A stretch of DNA of 64,000 bases. It comes from an uncultured Candidatus Saccharibacteria bacterium. Its GTDB lineage: Bacteria; Patescibacteriota; Minisyncoccia; Phycocordibacterales; EsbW-18. Numbering within the stretch: position 1 is the stretch's first letter; each line of letters starts with the position of its first letter. This document shows, one piece after another, positions 43,620-52,056 of the stretch. The stretch covers positions 50,379 through 114,378 of the forward strand of contig CAZFMQ010000002.1 in NCBI GenBank assembly GCA_964520295.1. The letters are read 5' to 3'. The position numbers were made by a program, and so were the translations under genes. Below the pieces are notes generated by a model that worked only from the letters and a program-made list of their open reading frames with translations, ran no database searches and was not told where the DNA came from.

Positions 43620-45371
43620 ATGAGCAAAAAAACTCCAGAAGATCTTTCCGCACTTCGGCACACGCTTGCGCACCTATTAGCTGCTGCCACACTCAAGCAT
43701 CATCCCGATGCAAAACTCACACTTGGTCCGAGCATAGATAACGGCTTCTACTACGATATTCAATTTGATACCCCACTCAAAGATGAGGATCTTGCACCTA
43801 TAGAAAAGACGATGCGCGAGATGCTTCCTTCATGGACAGCGTTCACTCATGAGGAAGTATCACAAGAAGAGGCACATGCACGCTTTGAAGGTAATCCGTT
43901 CAAACAAGAGCTCATCGAAGAAATCGCACAGCGCAATGAATCAATTACGTTGTATACCTGTGGAGCATTCACCGACTTATGTCGTGGCGGTCACGTAGAA
44001 CATCCTGCAAAAGACATTGATCCAAGTGCGTTTGAACTCTCACACGTCGCGGGTGCCTACTGGCGCGGTAATGAGAAGAATCCGATGCTTACCCGCATCT
44101 ACGGTCTCGCATTTTCATCTAAAGAAGACCTAGATGCATACAAAACACAGATTGAAGAAGCGAAGAAGCGCGATCACAAAAAACTAGGTCGCGAGCTAGA
44201 TATATTCGTATTTTCGGACTTGGTTGGTAGTGGTTTACCACTCTGGACACCAAAAGGAACCATGCTACGCAATCTACTTGATGATTTTGTATGGGAACTC
44301 CGCAGTGCACGTGGCTATCAACGCGTAGAAATACCACACATCACGAAAAAAGACCTCTACGAAAAAAGTGGCCACTGGGCAAAGTTTCAAGATGAACTCT
44401 TCAAAATAACAACACGTGAGGGGCACTTGTTTGCCATGAAGCCAATGAACTGCCCACACCACACGCAAATTTACGACCGAAAGCAGTGGAGTTATCGCGA
44501 GTTGCCTCAACGCTATGCAAACACCACGATGTGCTATCGTGATGAGCAAAGCGGTGAACTTTCAGGACTTTCACGCGCACGAAGCTTCACACAAGATGAC
44601 GCGCATGTCTTTTGTCGTCTAACACAAACAAAAGAAGAGTTTCTCAAGGTATGGGATATCATCCACGAATTTTATGGCGTGTTTGGGTTTGCGCTGTCGG
44701 TGCGTCTTTCAACACATGACCCAGAACATCCTGAAAAATACCTCGGTGATACTGCACGCTGGGAAACAGCAGAAGATATGCTTCGTGAAATTATTGATGA
44801 AAAAGGAGTTACCGCACTTCCCGGTATCGGCGAAGCGGCATTTTATGGTCCAAAATTGGACTTCATGGCCAACGACTCACTTGGACGTCAGTGGCAAGTC
44901 GCAACCATTCAACTAGACATGAACATGCCTGAGAACTTTGATCTCTCATGCGTCAATGAACAGGGTGTAAAAGAACGTATCGTGATGATTCACGCGGCTA
45001 TCATGGGCTCCATTGAACGCTTCATGTCTATTCTCATAGAACACACCGCCGGTGCATTCCCCACTTGGCTCTCGCCGGTGCAAGTGTCAGTCATTCCTGT
45101 GTCTGAAAAACATGTAGCATACGCACAAACGGTCGCCGATGCACTCAAAGACGCGAACGTTCGTGTACTGCTTGATACTTCAAACGAGATGCTCGGCAAA
45201 AAAATCCGCGCATGGAAAACAGAAAAAACACCGTACGCCATTGTTATTGGTGATAAAGAAATTGAAAGCAACACACTCTCCGTTGAACACCGTTCAGGTA
45301 CAAAAGAAACGATGCCACTATCGACATTCCTTGAAAAACTACAGAAAGAGATTACTGAACGTCTGCAGTAA
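43620..45371 (+). CDS. thrS: Threonyl-tRNA synthetase (short form lacking N-terminal TGS/editing extension)
   Basis: LRHTLAHLLAAA, class II motifs (FRLSRAR-like SGLSRARSFTQDDAH) and a C-terminal anticodon-binding domain. Confidence 0.85.
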   Translation: MSKKTPEDLSALRHTLAHLLAAATLKHHPDAKLTLGPSIDNGFYYDIQFDTPLKDEDLAPIEKTMREMLPSWTAFTHEEVSQEEAHARFEGNPFKQELIEEIAQRNESITLYTCGAFTDLCRGGHVEHPAKDIDPSAFELSHVAGAYWRGNEKNPMLTRIYGLAFSSKEDLDAYKTQIEEAKKRDHKKLGRELDIFVFSDLVGSGLPLWTPKGTMLRNLLDDFVWELRSARGYQRVEIPHITKKDLYEKSGHWAKFQDELFKITTREGHLFAMKPMNCPHHTQIYDRKQWSYRELPQRYANTTMCYRDEQSGELSGLSRARSFTQDDAHVFCRLTQTKEEFLKVWDIIHEFYGVFGFALSVRLSTHDPEHPEKYLGDTARWETAEDMLREIIDEKGVTALPGIGEAAFYGPKLDFMANDSLGRQWQVATIQLDMNMPENFDLSCVNEQGVKERIVMIHAAIMGSIERFMSILIEHTAGAFPTWLSPVQVSVIPVSEKHVAYAQTVADALKDANVRVLLDTSNEMLGKKIRAWKTEKTPYAIVIGDKEIESNTLSVEHRSGTKETMPLSTFLEKLQKEITERLQ

Positions 45372-45873
45372 GTGTTTGCGCAATATGCGCTACGAGCCCA
45401 TCGAGATCAAACCCGCGCTCTGCCTCACAGGCAGAGCGCTCTGGCATATCGTAATTCGCACACTGCGGCATACGCGTTGAAAAAGTGAAAATCGCCGTAC
45501 GTGCAGTATCTACTGCTGTCGCATACGCATACTGCGTATACACACTTCCTGCCGCACCTTCTTGCATTTCTGTTACACAAAACTCACGCCCTCCAATGGT
45601 ACGCTTTTCGGTCTTGCCCGCTCGTTCAATGACAGAGCCCGCTTCCACACACGTCAATGGTCCATTGAGCACCTGCAATTGTGGTGGCCAATCAAATGCA
45701 GTGAGGTACGTCGTTCCAAATGTATCTGGATAATAGAACTGCATACTCGACGGCACATCATGCACCACCGACCACTCCTCTGGAATCTCTACACTCGCGC
45801 GGTCGCGCGCAACCCATACTACACATGCAAGAACAGCACAGATAAGTATGAATGTGAGTGCAGATTTCTTCAT
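45352..45873 (-). CDS. Secreted/lipoprotein-like hypothetical protein
   Basis: An N-terminal signal peptide (MKKSALTFILICAVLACVVW) and several Cys. No known motifs. Confidence 0.45.
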   Translation of the reverse strand: MKKSALTFILICAVLACVVWVARDRASVEIPEEWSVVHDVPSSMQFYYPDTFGTTYLTAFDWPPQLQVLNGPLTCVEAGSVIERAGKTEKRTIGGREFCVTEMQEGAAGSVYTQYAYATAVDTARTAIFTFSTRMPQCANYDMPERSACEAERGFDLDGLVAHIAQTLTADVQ

Positions 45874-45876
45874 GCT

Positions 45877-46326
45877 CTATGCGATGTCCTTAAAGACGTT
45901 GTGTTCAAATGTCCACAGCAATGTAAATGCAAGCAGCGTCAGGATGGCTGTTGCAATTGCAATTGTGTACAAACCCAGTGCGCACGCAACACCAATACCT
46001 GCTGATACCCACAATCCTGCCGCGGTGGTCAAACCGATAAGTGTTTCCCCACGCATAATGATGGCACCTGCACCCAAAAAGCCGATACCGGTAACAACAC
46101 CTGCAACGACGCGCATAATGTCAGGACCCGATACACCAAGCGTCTCCGTAACTGCCAAGCTCACTATGACAAAGAGACATGAACCCATTGATACCAGTCC
46201 GAATGTGCGCAACCCTGCTGTTTTTCCTGCACGCGAACGTTCAAGTCCTACGAGTACGCCAAGTGTCAGTGCAATGAGTAATCGTATAATGTGCGTATCA
46301 TTGAGAAATGCGAGAAATGTTTCCAT
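45877..46326 (-). CDS. MgtC/SapB family membrane protein
   Basis: LGVLVGLERSRAGKTAGLRTFGLV is the MgtC N-terminal signature. Four or five TM helices. Confidence 0.7.
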   Translation of the reverse strand: METFLAFLNDTHIIRLLIALTLGVLVGLERSRAGKTAGLRTFGLVSMGSCLFVIVSLAVTETLGVSGPDIMRVVAGVVTGIGFLGAGAIIMRGETLIGLTTAAGLWVSAGIGVACALGLYTIAIATAILTLLAFTLLWTFEHNVFKDIA

Positions 46327-46346
46327 ATAATATATATATATATATA
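46327..46346. repeat. (TA)n dinucleotide microsatellite in divergent intergenic region
   Basis: tataatatatatatatatatac: about 8-9 TA units. Confidence 0.7.
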
Positions 46347-46361
46347 CTATCTAAAAAATTA

Positions 46362-47189
46362 TTATATACACAAACGTTGCGCTTCTGCGATAACTGCGTC
46401 CACTTTCTTACCCGTAATACCTGCATGTTCCAATACATTTGGATTGCTCGTAATATCTTTACACAGTACGATACCGCGTTGATACATTGCCTCACGTTCC
46501 TTTTGCCCAAGTGATGTCAAACATGAGAGTGGGTGCAATTTTGTCTCTTCAATCAAATCCTGCAAATTACCTTTTTGTGGATATCCCCACCCCACCAAGG
46601 TCATGTGTGAACAGGCCCCAAATGCAATCGCATTTTCCGTAAACTTTGTGTTAGTAACTAACCACGACGAACACGTACCACCTGGAGGACATAGCCCATC
46701 ATAGTGATTATCACGCAAGTCATTCATGCGCGCATGGATGTAGAGAGCCACCTTCACGTCTGTTTTGAAACCTTGCGCATTATGGAACTTTGCTTCCACG
46801 AGAATAAGCTCTTTCTGATTGCGAGCGACCACATCTATTTCGTGCGACACACACTTTCCGCGTAATGTGGTGCCCACCTGTGTTTGATACCCCTTACTGC
46901 GAAACATCTCGCCGAGTAACTGTTCGAAGGGAAAACCAGATGGCCCTAACTCAAGCACTGCGCGGCGCAATGAGTACCGAGCGGCAATCGGTGCGCGCGA
47001 TGATTTACGCAACAATTTGAGTGCGTGTTTATAGATGCGCGACGTGGACATACCGTCCGTCACCTCTTTTTCAATCGTGGTAACAATATCACGCACAACC
47101 TCCTCAGATGCGCCGACACGTCGGAGTGATTCTGCCAACTTTTCAGGTTCAAACGCTTCAACAGTTCCGTCCAATTTCGTAATGAGCAT
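46362..47189 (-). CDS. ATP-cone domain fused to Mrr-type (PD-(D/E)XK) restriction endonuclease-like domain
   Basis: The N-terminal ITKLDGTVEAFEPEKLAESLRRVGASEEVVRDIV is an ATP-cone. The central FEQLLGEMFRSKGYQTQV...HEIDVVARNQKELILVEAKF matches the Mrr_cat D...(D/E)xK core. Confidence 0.6.
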   Translation of the reverse strand: MLITKLDGTVEAFEPEKLAESLRRVGASEEVVRDIVTTIEKEVTDGMSTSRIYKHALKLLRKSSRAPIAARYSLRRAVLELGPSGFPFEQLLGEMFRSKGYQTQVGTTLRGKCVSHEIDVVARNQKELILVEAKFHNAQGFKTDVKVALYIHARMNDLRDNHYDGLCPPGGTCSSWLVTNTKFTENAIAFGACSHMTLVGWGYPQKGNLQDLIEETKLHPLSCLTSLGQKEREAMYQRGIVLCKDITSNPNVLEHAGITGKKVDAVIAEAQRLCI

Positions 47190-47206: not shown

Positions 47207-48271
47207 CTACGATGCCACACTCACCACACCACCGCCGATAACTTCTGTGTCGCGGTACAACACAAGCGATTGTCCGACCGTAACTGCTTTCTGTGTTTCT
47301 AAAAACTGTACAGTGTTCGTCTCTGCATCAAACGTACATGGCGCAAGCACCTGACGATATCGAAAACGCGCTGTATAAGCACCGCTCTCTGGTGGTACAT
47401 GTGCAATCCAGTGCACCTGCTCAAGCACAACGTTGCGTATTGAAAATGCATCGGATGTTTTGAAGTGTTGCGATACGGTCAACGTATTTGCCTGCACATC
47501 TTTTGCCACAACATAAAACGCACCGTCATCAGGACGCTTATCTGTAACTGTAAATCCATGCCGTTGTCCGAGTGTGTAGAGCAACGCGCCTTCATGCGTG
47601 CCAATAACACGGCCTTCTGTATCCATCACATTCCCCGATTCCACGGAAATAAATCGTTTCAAAAACTCTTTCATGTCTACCTGACCCAAAAAGCACACGC
47701 CTTGACTGTCTTTTTTATCAGCAACTGACAATCCAAACTCCTGCGCGAGCTCGCGAACTTTTTTCTTTTCAAATGCACCCACCGGAAACAGTACATGCTG
47801 GAGTGTCTCTTGTGGAATGCGCCACAAAAAATATGATTGATCCTTTTGCCCATCAACACCTGCGTGCAACTGCGCCTTACCGTCTGCGCCAATGACGGTG
47901 CGTGCGTAATGCCCTGTCGCCACAAAATCTGCACCCTGTTCTCGTGCTGCAGCAAAAAAAGCACCGAATTTGATTTTGTCATTGCACATCACATCAGGAT
48001 TCGGCGTTCGCCCCTGTGCGTATTCAGCAAGCATGTAATCCACCACCTCTCGCTTGTACTCCGCCTCCAAGTCAATCGTATGAAATGGAATGCCAAGCTG
48101 TGCACACACATCCATTGCATCACGACGCTCATCACGCCACGTGCACTCCAAAAACGGCGGGTGCCACGTTTTGATAAACACACCCACCACATCGTACCCT
48201 TCTTGTTTCAGCAATGCGGCAGCGACCGAGCTATCCACACCACCTGACATGGCAACAAATACCTTCTGCAT
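47207..48271 (-). CDS. mnmA: tRNA-specific 2-thiouridylase
   Basis: The PP-loop SGGVDSSV with catalytic Cys motifs. The start is at the internal ATG MQKVFVAMSGG. Confidence 0.85.
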   Translation of the reverse strand: MQKVFVAMSGGVDSSVAAALLKQEGYDVVGVFIKTWHPPFLECTWRDERRDAMDVCAQLGIPFHTIDLEAEYKREVVDYMLAEYAQGRTPNPDVMCNDKIKFGAFFAAAREQGADFVATGHYARTVIGADGKAQLHAGVDGQKDQSYFLWRIPQETLQHVLFPVGAFEKKKVRELAQEFGLSVADKKDSQGVCFLGQVDMKEFLKRFISVESGNVMDTEGRVIGTHEGALLYTLGQRHGFTVTDKRPDDGAFYVVAKDVQANTLTVSQHFKTSDAFSIRNVVLEQVHWIAHVPPESGAYTARFRYRQVLAPCTFDAETNTVQFLETQKAVTVGQSLVLYRDTEVIGGGVVSVAS

Positions 48272-48396
48272 GTGCACCAACATACCACAGACCATTGACG
48301 CCCGCCCACTGCGCGATACTATACGTGTAGATTTTGTACGTGGGAGCCGAACTCACCCCCAGCGCATCCGCGCTACCCGTATTCGGTTCCTTTACC

Positions 48397-48446
48397 CCCT
48401 CTGGCGTCCATCTCCCACCCCCCTCCGCGCCAGAGGGTCTTTTTTT
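48397..48446 (+). terminator. Strong hairpin + T7 tract in mnmA/def divergent intergenic region (terminator of a short plus-strand transcript or sRNA)
   Basis: ccctctggcg...cgccagaggg (10-bp perfect stem) followed by tcttttttt. The upstream 100 nt is GC-rich and further structured. Confidence 0.45.
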
Positions 48447-48471
48447 ACGCTATACTATAGATATAAGCAGT

Positions 48472-48972
48472 ATGAAAAAAATTGTACAAGTAGGACACAA
48501 AACATTGCGTGCAAAGGCGAAGCCGGTGGCACTCAAAGATATCAGCGGCACACGCATACAAAAAGTGCTCGCAGACATGAAAGAGGCGCTTGCGCGTGAA
48601 GATGACGGTGTGGCAATCGCCGCACCACAAATTGCCGTTTCGTTGCGAATTTTTGTCGTATCAGGAAAAGTATTTCCAAAAAACACGGACGTGGATCGTG
48701 TGTTCATCAATCCCACCATCGTCAACATGTCGCAAGAGCGTGAATGGTTGGAAGAGGGATGTTTGTCAGTGCGTTGGAAATACGGCGAAATCTCTCGTGC
48801 TGAAAAAGCAACCGTTAGTGCATACGATGAACACGGTACGCAATTTACGCTCGGCGCATCGGGATTGCTTGCACAAATCTTCCAGCACGAAATTGACCAT
48901 CTTGATGGCACACTCTTTATAGACAATGCGCGCAACGTGCGTGATATTCCACCACCTGATGACAATGACTAA
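48472..48972 (+). CDS. def: Peptide deformylase
   Basis: The EGCLS motif (EGCLSV) and the HEIDHLDG metal-binding motif. Confidence 0.85.
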   Translation: MKKIVQVGHKTLRAKAKPVALKDISGTRIQKVLADMKEALAREDDGVAIAAPQIAVSLRIFVVSGKVFPKNTDVDRVFINPTIVNMSQEREWLEEGCLSVRWKYGEISRAEKATVSAYDEHGTQFTLGASGLLAQIFQHEIDHLDGTLFIDNARNVRDIPPPDDND

Positions 48973-49834
48973 TCCGCACAATCCTCGTTTCGTTTTTTTT
49001 GGCACACCCGATATTGCTGTTGTGGCACTACAAACCCTGCATGACGCAGGTTTTATTCCTGCACTTATTATTACAGCGCCCGACGCGCGCGTCGGGCGCG
49101 GCCTCGTGCTGACACCATCACCAGCAGCACAGTGGGCAGAGCAACACGCTATCCCCACGCTCAAACCCACAAAACTCTCTGATCTTGCAGTTGCAGATAC
49201 ACTGCGCGCACAACAATTGGAATTGGGAATTGTTGTTGCATACGGAAAAATAATTCCAAAAACACTACTGGATATGCTACCTCGCGGCACGCTCAACATG
49301 CATCCTTCACTATTGCCCCGCCATCGCGGTCCATCGCCCATTGAATCGCAAATTTTGACCGAGACATCCGCACACGATGTTGGTGTGTCCATTATGCTTT
49401 TAGATGAACAAATGGATCACGGCCCTGTGCTCGCGCAAGAAGTTGTAGCTGACGAAATACCTACATGGCCTATGTCGGCCATTGACCTGCGCGCACTGGT
49501 TGCACGCCGTGGTGCACAAGTACTTACACGCACACTACCTGCGTACATAGATGGAACCATTACCCCAACACCACAAGATGACACGCAGGCGACATATTGC
49601 ACACTGATTGCAAAAGAAGATGCACATATTGATTTGCAAGACGACGCACTCACGAATTATCGCAAAATATGTGCGTACGCCGTGTGGCCGCGCGCATTCT
49701 TTTTTGCAGAAAAAAACGGAAAGCGCGTGCGTGTTGTTATCACGCACGCGCACCTAGACGACAACACGCTCATCATTGAGCGTGTTATTCCTGAAGGTAA
49801 AAAAGAAATGTCGTATAGCGACTTTATGCGCTAA
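48965..49834 (+). CDS. fmt: Methionyl-tRNA formyltransferase
   Basis: Formyl-transferase N-domain motifs (FFGTPD, SLLPRHRG) and a C-terminal domain. It overlaps def by 8 nt. Confidence 0.85.
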   Translation: MTNPHNPRFVFFGTPDIAVVALQTLHDAGFIPALIITAPDARVGRGLVLTPSPAAQWAEQHAIPTLKPTKLSDLAVADTLRAQQLELGIVVAYGKIIPKTLLDMLPRGTLNMHPSLLPRHRGPSPIESQILTETSAHDVGVSIMLLDEQMDHGPVLAQEVVADEIPTWPMSAIDLRALVARRGAQVLTRTLPAYIDGTITPTPQDDTQATYCTLIAKEDAHIDLQDDALTNYRKICAYAVWPRAFFFAEKNGKRVRVVITHAHLDDNTLIIERVIPEGKKEMSYSDFMR

Positions 49835-50853: not shown

Positions 50854-52056
50854 ATGAATACACTACTAAAAAAAGTATGCGTGGGTCTATGTGCCCTTGC
50901 GCTCTGTGCCATTGCACTACCTACCTTTGCTCAAAAGAAAGATCTCACAGCCGATCTTGAAATATCGGGTTGGATTCCCTATTGGACCCCGACCACAGGA
51001 ACATCCGATGCCCGTAAAAATCTGGATACATTCAGCGTCCTCTTCCCCTTCACGTATTCTGTAAAGAGCGATGGAACTCTTCTTGAAAACGCCGACCTCA
51101 AGAAAAACCCGTGGAAGCGTCTTATTACTGCCGCAAAGAAAAAAGATGTGTTGATTATTCCAACCGTCATGTGGAGCAATACATCAGCAATGCATACCGT
51201 GCTCTCCATACCGCAGATGCGAGAGCAACATATTGATGAAATTGTGAAGATGGTGAAAAAAGGAAAATTTGATGGAGTTGATATTGACTACGAAGGCAAG
51301 TCAGCAGACACATATGCTGCATACGCCACCTTCCTCAAAGAACTCAAAGAAGAGCTCGGCAAAAAACTCATACTCTCATGCACCATTGAAGCGCGTACGC
51401 CACCTGAAAAACTCTACCGTACGATGCCCGCTGATCTGCGCTACGCAAACGACTTCACGGCAATTGCTCAGCACTGTGATCGCGTCAACATCATGACGTA
51501 CGATCAGCAACGCGCCGTATATGCACTCAACGAAACATACACAGGCACACCATACGTACCTATCGCCGATACAGCGTGGGTTCGCGACGTCATTGAACTG
51601 ACCCTCAAAACTATTCCGAAAGAAAAACTCTCACTCGGCATCGCCACCTACGGTCATGAATACGAAGTAGTCGTCTACCCAAACGGCTACATGGAATACG
51701 GGCGCACAGGTGCATTCAATCCTTCATACGGTATCAAAACAGCCAAAAGCAATCGGGTAACGCCTGAGCGCAATATCGCAGGGGAACTCTTTTTCTCATT
51801 CCATGTAAACGATCATGCACCACAGGCAAGAACTGCAGTGTCATACGGCGCATCTGACGCCAATCGTGCATTCGCCCAAAGCAGTGCCTACACACGTGCT
51901 ACGCAAATCCCGTCCGTCTTTTACTACGCAACGTGGAGTGATGCAGAAGCAATTGAGGAAAAAATAGAGCTCGCACGCGAATACGACCTTCGTGGTGTTG
52001 CCATCTTCAAAATAGACGGCAATGAAGACAAGGCACTCTGGAAATTACTCAAGTAA
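50854..52056 (+). CDS. Secreted glycoside hydrolase family 18 (chitinase-like) protein
   Basis: A signal peptide and the GH18 catalytic motif DGVDIDYEG (DxxDxDxE). Confidence 0.7.
   Translation: MNTLLKKVCVGLCALALCAIALPTFAQKKDLTADLEISGWIPYWTPTTGTSDARKNLDTFSVLFPFTYSVKSDGTLLENADLKKNPWKRLITAAKKKDVLIIPTVMWSNTSAMHTVLSIPQMREQHIDEIVKMVKKGKFDGVDIDYEGKSADTYAAYATFLKELKEELGKKLILSCTIEARTPPEKLYRTMPADLRYANDFTAIAQHCDRVNIMTYDQQRAVYALNETYTGTPYVPIADTAWVRDVIELTLKTIPKEKLSLGIATYGHEYEVVVYPNGYMEYGRTGAFNPSYGIKTAKSNRVTPERNIAGELFFSFHVNDHAPQARTAVSYGASDANRAFAQSSAYTRATQIPSVFYYATWSDAEAIEEKIELAREYDLRGVAIFKIDGNEDKALWKLLK

Follow-up and report, generated by a model that had tools for sequence, protein, structure and literature searches.

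The window analysed here is a stretch of 64,000 nucleotides (nt) from an uncultured bacterium deposited as Candidatus Saccharibacteria (GenBank assembly GCA_964520295.1, contig CAZFMQ010000002.1, positions 50,379 to 114,378), and our subject is a single gene at 46362..47189 on its minus strand. In the list of open reading frames (ORFs) of the window, this gene starts with ATG and encodes 275 amino acids (aa) followed by a stop codon. A first-pass annotation, made from the letters alone and without naming a strand, had described at this position an ATP-cone fused to an Mrr-type PD-(D/E)XK restriction endonuclease core, and had quoted the strings FEQLLGEMFRSKGYQ, EIDVVA and LILVEAKF. All three strings are present in the protein, the coding strand is minus, and the observation is confirmed. 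The ORF is complete, as judged from the ORF list, homologs of like size and an NCBI protein that is 100% identical to it and lies on a 126.7-kb contig. Its product is referred to below as an AF1548-family ATP-cone nuclease. From the N-terminus it consists of an ATP-cone (aa 1-76, 46962..47189), a highly conserved linker together with the first helix of the nuclease (aa 77-90, 'VLELGPSGFPFEQ', 46920..46961), a PD-(D/E)XK core of the Mrr_cat type (aa 85-199, 46593..46937) and an AF1548-like helical C-terminal domain of the (HhH)2, or double helix-hairpin-helix, type (aa 203-275, 46365..46583), all on the minus strand.

Architecture of the protein and its family

A Pfam search, which had been proposed as a check on the two domains, places both of them above their gathering cut-offs. 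The ATP-cone model PF03477 matches aa 1-76 with 35.2 bits (cut-off 25.8), the Mrr_cat model PF04471 matches aa 85-199 with 31.1 bits (cut-off 21), and both models are matched by 99 of 99 aligned homologs. In an AlphaFold2 model of the protein, the cone comprises strands at residues 2-4 and 10-12 and helices at 15-24, 29-42, 49-63 and 68-79. When the model was compared with the PDB by Foldseek, the N-terminus superposed on the cones of the R1 subunits of Escherichia coli and human ribonucleotide reductase (RNR) (2x0x, 8vhp and 3hne) with about 21% identity over about 109 columns. Score, alignment and superposition together bear out the N-terminal ATP-cone.

Residue equivalences in the cone were taken from an alignment of the protein with E. 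coli NrdA and NrdR, in which K5, L6, E11, K17, L18, T49, I52 and Y53 correspond to NrdA K9, R10, E15, K21, I22, T55, I58 and H59, respectively. We take the nucleotide-contacting residues of NrdA to be K9, R10, E15, K21, T55 and H59. Among these contact positions K5, E11, K17 and T49 are conserved and Y53 stands in place of H59, while K17, T49 and I52 are invariant in the cones of 99 bacterial homologs. Most of the ligand positions of an ATP-cone thus appear to be kept. The canonical KRDG motif is kept by the relatives in Archaeoglobi. Within the window, a hidden Markov model specific to the family's cone found this protein only.

The proposed Mrr-type core is likewise supported by profile, sequence and structure, and all of its catalytic residues are intact. 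The predicted motif is E...D...ExK, a putative active site made up of the candidate catalytic residues E89 (46923-46925), D119 (46833-46835), E132 (46794-46796) and K134 (46788-46790), with codons read directly from the minus strand. These four residues are invariant in 99 bacterial sequences (alignment A3) and in 20 archaeal sequences (alignment A5), and such invariance over very long evolutionary distances argues for catalysis. Altogether 33 columns are invariant among the 99 bacterial homologs, which are 39-78% identical to the protein; those in the core include H116, E117, D119, E132, K134 and H136. In the linker, G82, P83, G85, F88 and E89 are invariant in alignments A1, A2 and A3 and in the archaeal alignment A5.

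The AlphaFold2 model, a single chain predicted on the 99 homologs, is confident (pLDDT 91.4, pTM 0.84). Its top match in the PDB as a whole is 1Y88 (Foldseek E 1.4e-14), and the next structural neighbours of the core are MspJI, VC1899, Cdn1, Can2, R2 endonuclease, EndoMS and XisH. Profile and structure searches also gave weak similarity to Hjc, UPF0102/YraN and EndoMS, and an NCBIfam search of the protein returned no significant match. Since the core to which the ATP-cone is fused has intact catalytic residues, it is reasonable to suppose that nucleotides gate the nuclease.

The C-terminal 100 or so amino acids, which had been left unassigned in the first-pass annotation, belong to an AF1548-like domain. 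A phmmer search of PDB sequences returned one entry, 1Y88 ('hypothetical protein AF1548'), with E 8.6e-29 over residues 91-273 of the protein, and since this alignment extends to residue 273 the C-terminal region corresponds to the second of the two domains in a structure that is already known. The model AF1548-like_C (PF22357) matches aa 236-272 with 19.1 bits, below its cut-off of 23.9, and is matched by 72 of the 99 homologs. A profile of the C-terminal domain matches 1Y88 at E 1.8e-23 and, weakly but consistently and in the same region, the (HhH)2 domains of the RAD51/RadA N-terminus and the NusA C-terminus (E 0.01-0.8). The segment 'LEHAGITGKKVDAVIAEA' in this domain reads as a helix-hairpin-helix, which favours, without proving, binding of the DNA backbone. 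The (HhH)2-like domain probably holds nucleic acid, most likely DNA.

The protein belongs to the AF1548 family, with homology over both the nuclease and the C-terminal helical domains. It shares with AF1548 of Archaeoglobus fulgidus the D...ExK motif as well as the fold (Foldseek TM 0.70 for 1Y88, normalised on our protein). A D/E/K catalytic triad with the same 13- and 2-residue spacing was predicted for AF1548 in the Global Ocean Sampling paper (PMC1821046). The two differ in that the deposited chain of 1Y88, a structural-genomics 'protein of unknown function', has no ATP-cone. In that chain a tag of 22 residues precedes the native sequence, which begins at the equivalent of residue 91 of the chain's nearest relative, a 99% identical protein of 265 aa that carries a full ATP-cone and a GPSGFxFE linker (P0393; locus L093:7001-7798). 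The crystallised construct therefore has neither the cone nor the conserved linker, most likely because it was based on a short, N-terminally truncated gene model. The sole solved structure of the AF1548 family is thus without the regulatory half.

The family is large. Of the 7,514 candidates scored in a search with the full-length protein, 5,811 reach E <= 1e-3, and the best matches, from Patescibacteria (Campbellbacteria, Wolfebacteria, Pacebacteria and Parcubacteria), have 275-290 aa and the same domains. Length and architecture are kept by homologs that are 78-39% identical to the protein. When aa 85-275 were used as the query against 1.84 billion cluster representatives, counted at 50% identity, 879 matches were obtained at E <= 1e-3. 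About 88 aa precede the nuclease match in about 135 of the best 150 of these 879 representatives, and about 12 of the best 150 are short and look cone-less. The short representatives may be fragments, because all five that were looked up come from contigs 0.96-2.9 kb long. When each species was represented by one genome, a scan found the gene in at least 594 species, mostly Patescibacteria, plus Bacteroidota at 41-45% identity. With the 1Y88 sequence as the query, relatives were found in Archaeoglobi, Geoglobus, Ferroglobus, Bathyarchaeia, Korarchaeota, Aenigmarchaeota, Altiarchaeales and Nanoarchaeota, and nearly all archaeal relatives among the matches listed carry the cone.

The idea that the cone-nuclease fusion is a derived rarity was dropped, given that the short members may be fragments and that AF1548 is a truncated construct. 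From these comparisons, the fusion appears to be the normal architecture of the AF1548 family. This architecture is already catalogued in databases, under names such as 'ATP cone domain-containing protein' or 'restriction endonuclease'; the family is known, and its function is uncharacterised.

Genomic contexts in Bacteria and Archaea

Neighbourhoods in Patescibacteria were counted over 79-80 species-level genome loci. The tRNA 2-thiouridylase gene mnmA lies upstream of the nuclease gene on the same strand in 62 of the 80 genomes (or 62 of 71 when only genomes with 1.5 kb or more of sequence on that side are counted), and within 150 nt of it in 35 of those 62. An MgtC homolog follows downstream in some 22-25 loci. 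Clustering of the neighbouring ORFs (loci L004-L085) revealed a longer conserved block that runs from a sigma70 region 4/HARE-HTH protein through DUF8128, YceG and MnmA to the nuclease and, further on, to alanyl-tRNA synthetase. The downstream genes are variable and include MgtC, DUF7282 and PepF together with the nucleotide or repair genes for a YfbR-like HD 5'-deoxynucleotidase, a family-4 uracil-DNA glycosylase (UDG), a Cas4-like PDDEXK_1 protein and an MGMT-like protein.

Across these genomes, the mean identity to the proteins of the window is 47% for the nuclease and 51% for MnmA. A divergence rate like that of MnmA indicates vertically inherited housekeeping behaviour, and in this genome, a Campbellbacteria-like one within the Patescibacteria, the nuclease gene is a vertically inherited housekeeping gene. 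Many metagenome-assembled genomes in the third-party annotation section that are labelled 'Candidatus Saccharibacteria' share a Paceibacteria-like synteny of the nuclease block, so that these labels may be unreliable.

In Bacteroidota, the nuclease is 85-97% identical among Cyclobacterium, Saprospiraceae, Sediminibacterium, Flavobacterium and Sphingobacterium, which is too high across orders for vertical descent and therefore points to recent horizontal spread. The gene sits in heavy-metal-resistance islands with an integrase, MerT, Cus/Czc efflux and a Cu-oxidase, and also on a plasmid of Pontibacter. It is in every case the first gene of a tight cassette in which it is followed by a nuclease of the metallo-beta-lactamase (MBL)/beta-CASP type, a thymidine/AMP-phosphorylase-family enzyme and a Prs paralog (loci L086-L090, which include the Criblamydia plasmid described next), and which often abuts a gene for a Ca/Mg-type P-type ATPase. 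The same cassette is found on a plasmid of Criblamydia (Chlamydiota), flanked by glgP and phosphoketolase at one end and by acetate kinase at the other end.

The beta-CASP protein of the cassette is nearest to Cas14 and aCPSF1, with all matches below the NCBIfam cut-offs. The phosphorylase belongs to the archaeal-type PRK04350/TIGR02645 group and comes near to AMP phosphorylase, with 491 bits (cut-off 535), and the Prs paralog falls in the NCBIfam subfamily PRK07199. An identification of the cassette with the low-oxygen (lxa) locus of Burkholderia was also considered and abandoned, since neither an ATP-cone nor a thymidine phosphorylase or MBL gene is mentioned in the paper on lxa.

In Bathyarchaeia, an IF-2B-family gene, a gene for a 514-aa phosphorylase and the nuclease gene follow one another in this order, and the stop codon of the phosphorylase gene overlaps the start of the nuclease gene (L095:4463-7873). 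The 514-aa phosphorylase has the same three Pfam domains as the phosphorylase of the Bacteroidota cassette. A second Bathyarchaeia-type locus has the same arrangement (L142:3420-6774), and six further places resemble the L095 locus. The IF-2B family includes ribose-1,5-bisphosphate isomerase. If the Bathyarchaeia pair, as its Pfam domains would allow, consists of AMP phosphorylase and this isomerase, it would represent the first two enzymes of archaeal nucleoside monophosphate (NMP) degradation.

Other archaeal neighbourhoods are more varied. In Ferroglobus the end of a CorA gene overlaps the nuclease gene (L094:5958-7001), as does a gene for an MscS-type channel on an Archaeoglobus-like contig (L093:6193-7035). 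The 80 further archaeal-type metagenome loci show no recurring partner, and DJ-1/PfpI, GltB-like, TrxR-like, DUF498 and HypF genes are among the neighbours.

Genes for cation transport or channels adjoin the nuclease gene in four phyla of two domains, several of them with overlapping start and stop codons. They encode MgtC in Patescibacteria and at the Bathyarchaeia-type locus L142, CorA in Ferroglobus, MscS in Archaeoglobus and a P-type ATPase in Bacteroidota and Chlamydiota. The adjacency to genes of Mg2+ and cation transport (MgtC, CorA and P-type ATPase) might reflect a link with Mg-ATP homeostasis.

Candidate functions

The protein was compared with characterised systems. The cone has the same Pfam family and fold as those of RNR R1 and NrdR, with K5, E11, K17, T49 and I52 conserved, but it is joined to a nuclease rather than to a reductase or a Zn-ribbon, and no nrd genes were seen nearby. 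With neither a Zn-ribbon nor nrd linkage, the protein is not NrdR. Its catalytic core is of the same family (PF04471) as that of Mrr-type type IV restriction endonucleases. Unlike these enzymes, it has the core between an ATP-cone and a C-terminal domain of the (HhH)2 type, and its gene is syntenic and housekeeping rather than a variable defence gene. No modification-reader domain (Mrr_N, winged helix or SRA) was found in the protein by Pfam or by a scan of the family. Having neither a modification reader nor a setting among defence genes, the protein does not count as a type IV restriction enzyme of the Mrr kind.

Similar in layout are Can2, Card1 and Cdn1, which likewise place an N-terminal sensor of nucleotide-derived ligands before a PD-(D/E)XK nuclease and whose cores are structural neighbours of ours (E 7e-4 to 9e-3), although at 12-17% identity the likeness is one of fold. 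Their sensor is a CARF domain, whereas here it is an ATP-cone, outside any context of CRISPR or of the cyclic-oligonucleotide-based antiphage signalling system (CBASS). By analogy, the protein may work as Can2 and Card1 do, as a ligand sensor coupled to a nuclease, without belonging to them.

We favour the reading that the protein is an adenine-nucleotide-gated housekeeping nuclease, tied to nucleotide salvage or catabolism and acting on DNA or possibly RNA, and we put its chances slightly short of even. In such a scheme, the cone would bind ATP and/or dATP, and binding would shift the oligomeric or conformational state of the protein, as it does in RNR and NrdR. The change of state would turn the nuclease on or off and thereby make the breakdown or processing of nucleic acid track the adenine-nucleotide state of the cell. 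The products would then enter the salvage or catabolism of nucleotides, with both the substrate and the part in salvage presumptive.

The reading draws on a linkage to genes of nucleotide metabolism that recurs in three unrelated lineages, namely Bacteroidota/Chlamydiota, Bathyarchaeia and Patescibacteria, often with start and stop codons that overlap or nearly abut. Many Patescibacteria and DPANN archaea have been reported to have no de novo pathway for nucleotides and to rely on salvage, and for that reason they would plausibly depend on a supply derived from nucleases.

Several observations weigh against a gated salvage nuclease. The position equivalent to R10 of NrdA is Leu or Ala throughout Patescibacteria, so that the cone may not bind nucleotides with the affinity or specificity seen in RNR. 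The (HhH)2 domains can also make protein contacts, as in NusA. The linkage to nucleotide metabolism is not tight in Patescibacteria, where the proximity to mnmA may be lineage synteny and not a functional link. Among the archaeal loci (80 in all), the pair of AMP-phosphorylase-type and IF-2B-family genes occurs in one of the 50 that are at least 5 kb long, and this single occurrence suggests that the linkage to nucleotide catabolism is lineage-specific and not universal. The proteins nearest to the beta-CASP partner in the cassette, Cas14 and aCPSF1, cleave RNA. Finally, literature searches on ATP-cone nucleases found no characterisation of any member of the family.

A broader proposal, which we advance tentatively and regard as somewhat unlikely, is that the AF1548 family represents a third class of ATP-cone proteins after RNR and NrdR, namely an ATP/dATP-gated nuclease that would meter the breakdown of DNA or RNA into salvage or NMP catabolism. 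Nearly all that is understood of ATP-cones concerns their role as an on/off switch in ribonucleotide reductases and NrdR. The AF1548 family is widespread and strongly conserved in Bacteria, among them the small-genome Patescibacteria, and in Archaea, including several DPANN-type lineages, and in it the same cone switch is attached to a nuclease with an intact motif. Should ATP/dATP indeed control the nuclease, a classic sensor would have gained a new allosteric output, and the enzyme would be a candidate control point of nucleic-acid turnover or salvage in Patescibacteria and DPANN-type organisms. If, in addition, these genomes have no de novo synthesis, the nuclease could be core to a life on scavenged nucleic acids.

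An unlikely alternative to the salvage nuclease is a structure- or damage-specific nuclease of DNA repair or recombination, whose incision would be licensed by the availability of deoxynucleoside triphosphates (dNTPs) or ATP and would not serve bulk degradation. The C-terminal domain of the (HhH)2, RAD51-N type would suit such an enzyme, as would the weak similarities to Hjc, UPF0102/YraN and EndoMS. In Patescibacteria, the downstream genes include family-4 UDG in 25 loci, Cas4-like PDDEXK_1 in 25 and the MGMT-like DNA_binding_1 in 8, but these neighbours shift in position (from +1 to +5) and may be a mere part of the syntenic block. The cassettes of Bacteroidota, Chlamydiota and Bathyarchaeia point instead to nucleotide catabolism.

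Less likely again is an RNA-directed nuclease that would turn over rRNA, tRNA or mRNA under the control of energy charge and feed NMPs to the AMP-phosphorylase pathway. The RNA-cleaving relatives of the beta-CASP partner speak for it, together with the archaeal-type phosphorylase close to AMP phosphorylase that comes next in the cassette and the Bathyarchaeia linkage to an IF-2B-family gene and a phosphorylase of the same domain family. However, the beta-CASP matches all fall below the NCBIfam cut-offs, and an Mrr-type core and an HhH domain are typical of DNA enzymes. The tight linkage to the tRNA enzyme MnmA in Patescibacteria would also fit, but it may be synteny only.

A role in defence or abortive infection had been suggested in the first-pass annotation. 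The cone would sense a change in the dNTP or ATP pool induced by phage and release a toxic nuclease, which we now consider improbable. The suggestion has in its favour the layout of sensor and PD-(D/E)XK nuclease, like that of the ligand-activated Can2, Card1 and Cdn1, and the horizontal mobility of the Bacteroidota clade on integrase islands and plasmids. Nevertheless, those mobile islands hold metal-resistance and metabolic genes and no defence genes, the neighbours in archaea are ordinary metabolic genes, and in Patescibacteria the gene occupies a fixed housekeeping position and diverges as MnmA does.

Searches of defence and phage resources are in line with this. The best PADLOC matches (E 0.0067 for CARF_PDDEXK with 13.6 bits, E 0.047 for ZorD) cover the nuclease-core region only and are not significant, and PHROGs gave only weak matches to RNR cones. 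A tblastn search of 50,697 phage genomes found no relative, a pattern scan of IMG/VR confirmed none, and a viral structure library gave only generic Mrr or RNR-cone similarity. Defence was therefore rejected as the main explanation.

The survey of homolog neighbourhoods for defence islands that had been called for found fixed synteny beside mnmA in 62 of 80 genomes and no defence association. No recurring defence gene was seen in any inspected neighbourhood, where the neighbours serve translation, repair, metabolism or metal resistance. Two findings had been named in advance as telling against the original proposal; homologs do lie in housekeeping contexts, but their catalytic residues have not been lost. 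The protein is accordingly not to be counted as a defence candidate, and the first-pass interpretation as a whole is partly supported.

A non-catalytic, nucleotide-sensing DNA-binding regulator on a nuclease fold, an NrdR analog for archaea and Patescibacteria, would follow the logic of NrdR in pairing a cone with a DNA-binding module, and NrdR is not known from archaea, but this is very improbable in view of the invariance of E89, D119, E132 and K134, the lack of a Zn-ribbon in a protein whose cone starts at residue 1, and the absence of ribonucleotide-reductase genes from every inspected neighbourhood (NrdR boxes were not searched for).

Neighbouring genes in the window

Upstream of the nuclease gene, across a gap of 17 nt, lies mnmA (47207..48295, minus strand; Pfam tRNA_Me_trans, 261.9 bits). 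Directly downstream is a gene for an MgtC-family membrane protein (45877..46326, minus strand; Pfam MgtC, 119 bits), and the three genes probably form one operon-like run in this genome. The stop codon of the nuclease gene and the start of the MgtC gene are separated by an AT-rich spacer of 35 nt (46327..46361, read on the minus strand), which is almost pure A/T and contains a 17-nt TA run at 46330-46346. The first-pass annotation was right about the MgtC-like neighbour and mistaken in seeing the (TA)n tract as a divergent promoter, since MgtC, the nuclease and mnmA are all on the minus strand. A promoter-like match on that strand, TTTAGA-17-TATTAT, ends at 46327, immediately before the ATG of MgtC; matches of this kind around the spacer are no commoner than in shuffled sequence. 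The MgtC transcript would be nearly leaderless if this element is functional.

Past mnmA lie def, fmt and hpf. The longest def ORF (48334-48972, plus strand) has a TTG start at 48334, its Pep_deformylase match begins near 48460, and as listed it overlaps the fmt ORF (48926-49834, plus strand) by 47 nt. The overlap and the late start of the match suggest that one or both genes probably start further downstream. On the other side, downstream of MgtC, a 173-aa ORF (45352-45873, minus strand) has a hydrophobic N-terminus and no Pfam match, and its 3' end overlaps by 20 nt the 3' end of the convergent gene for threonyl-tRNA synthetase (43620-45371, plus strand). Further along the window, 50854-52056 (plus strand) encodes a secreted-looking protein of 400 aa that belongs to glycosyl hydrolase family 18 (101 bits) and is chitinase-like.

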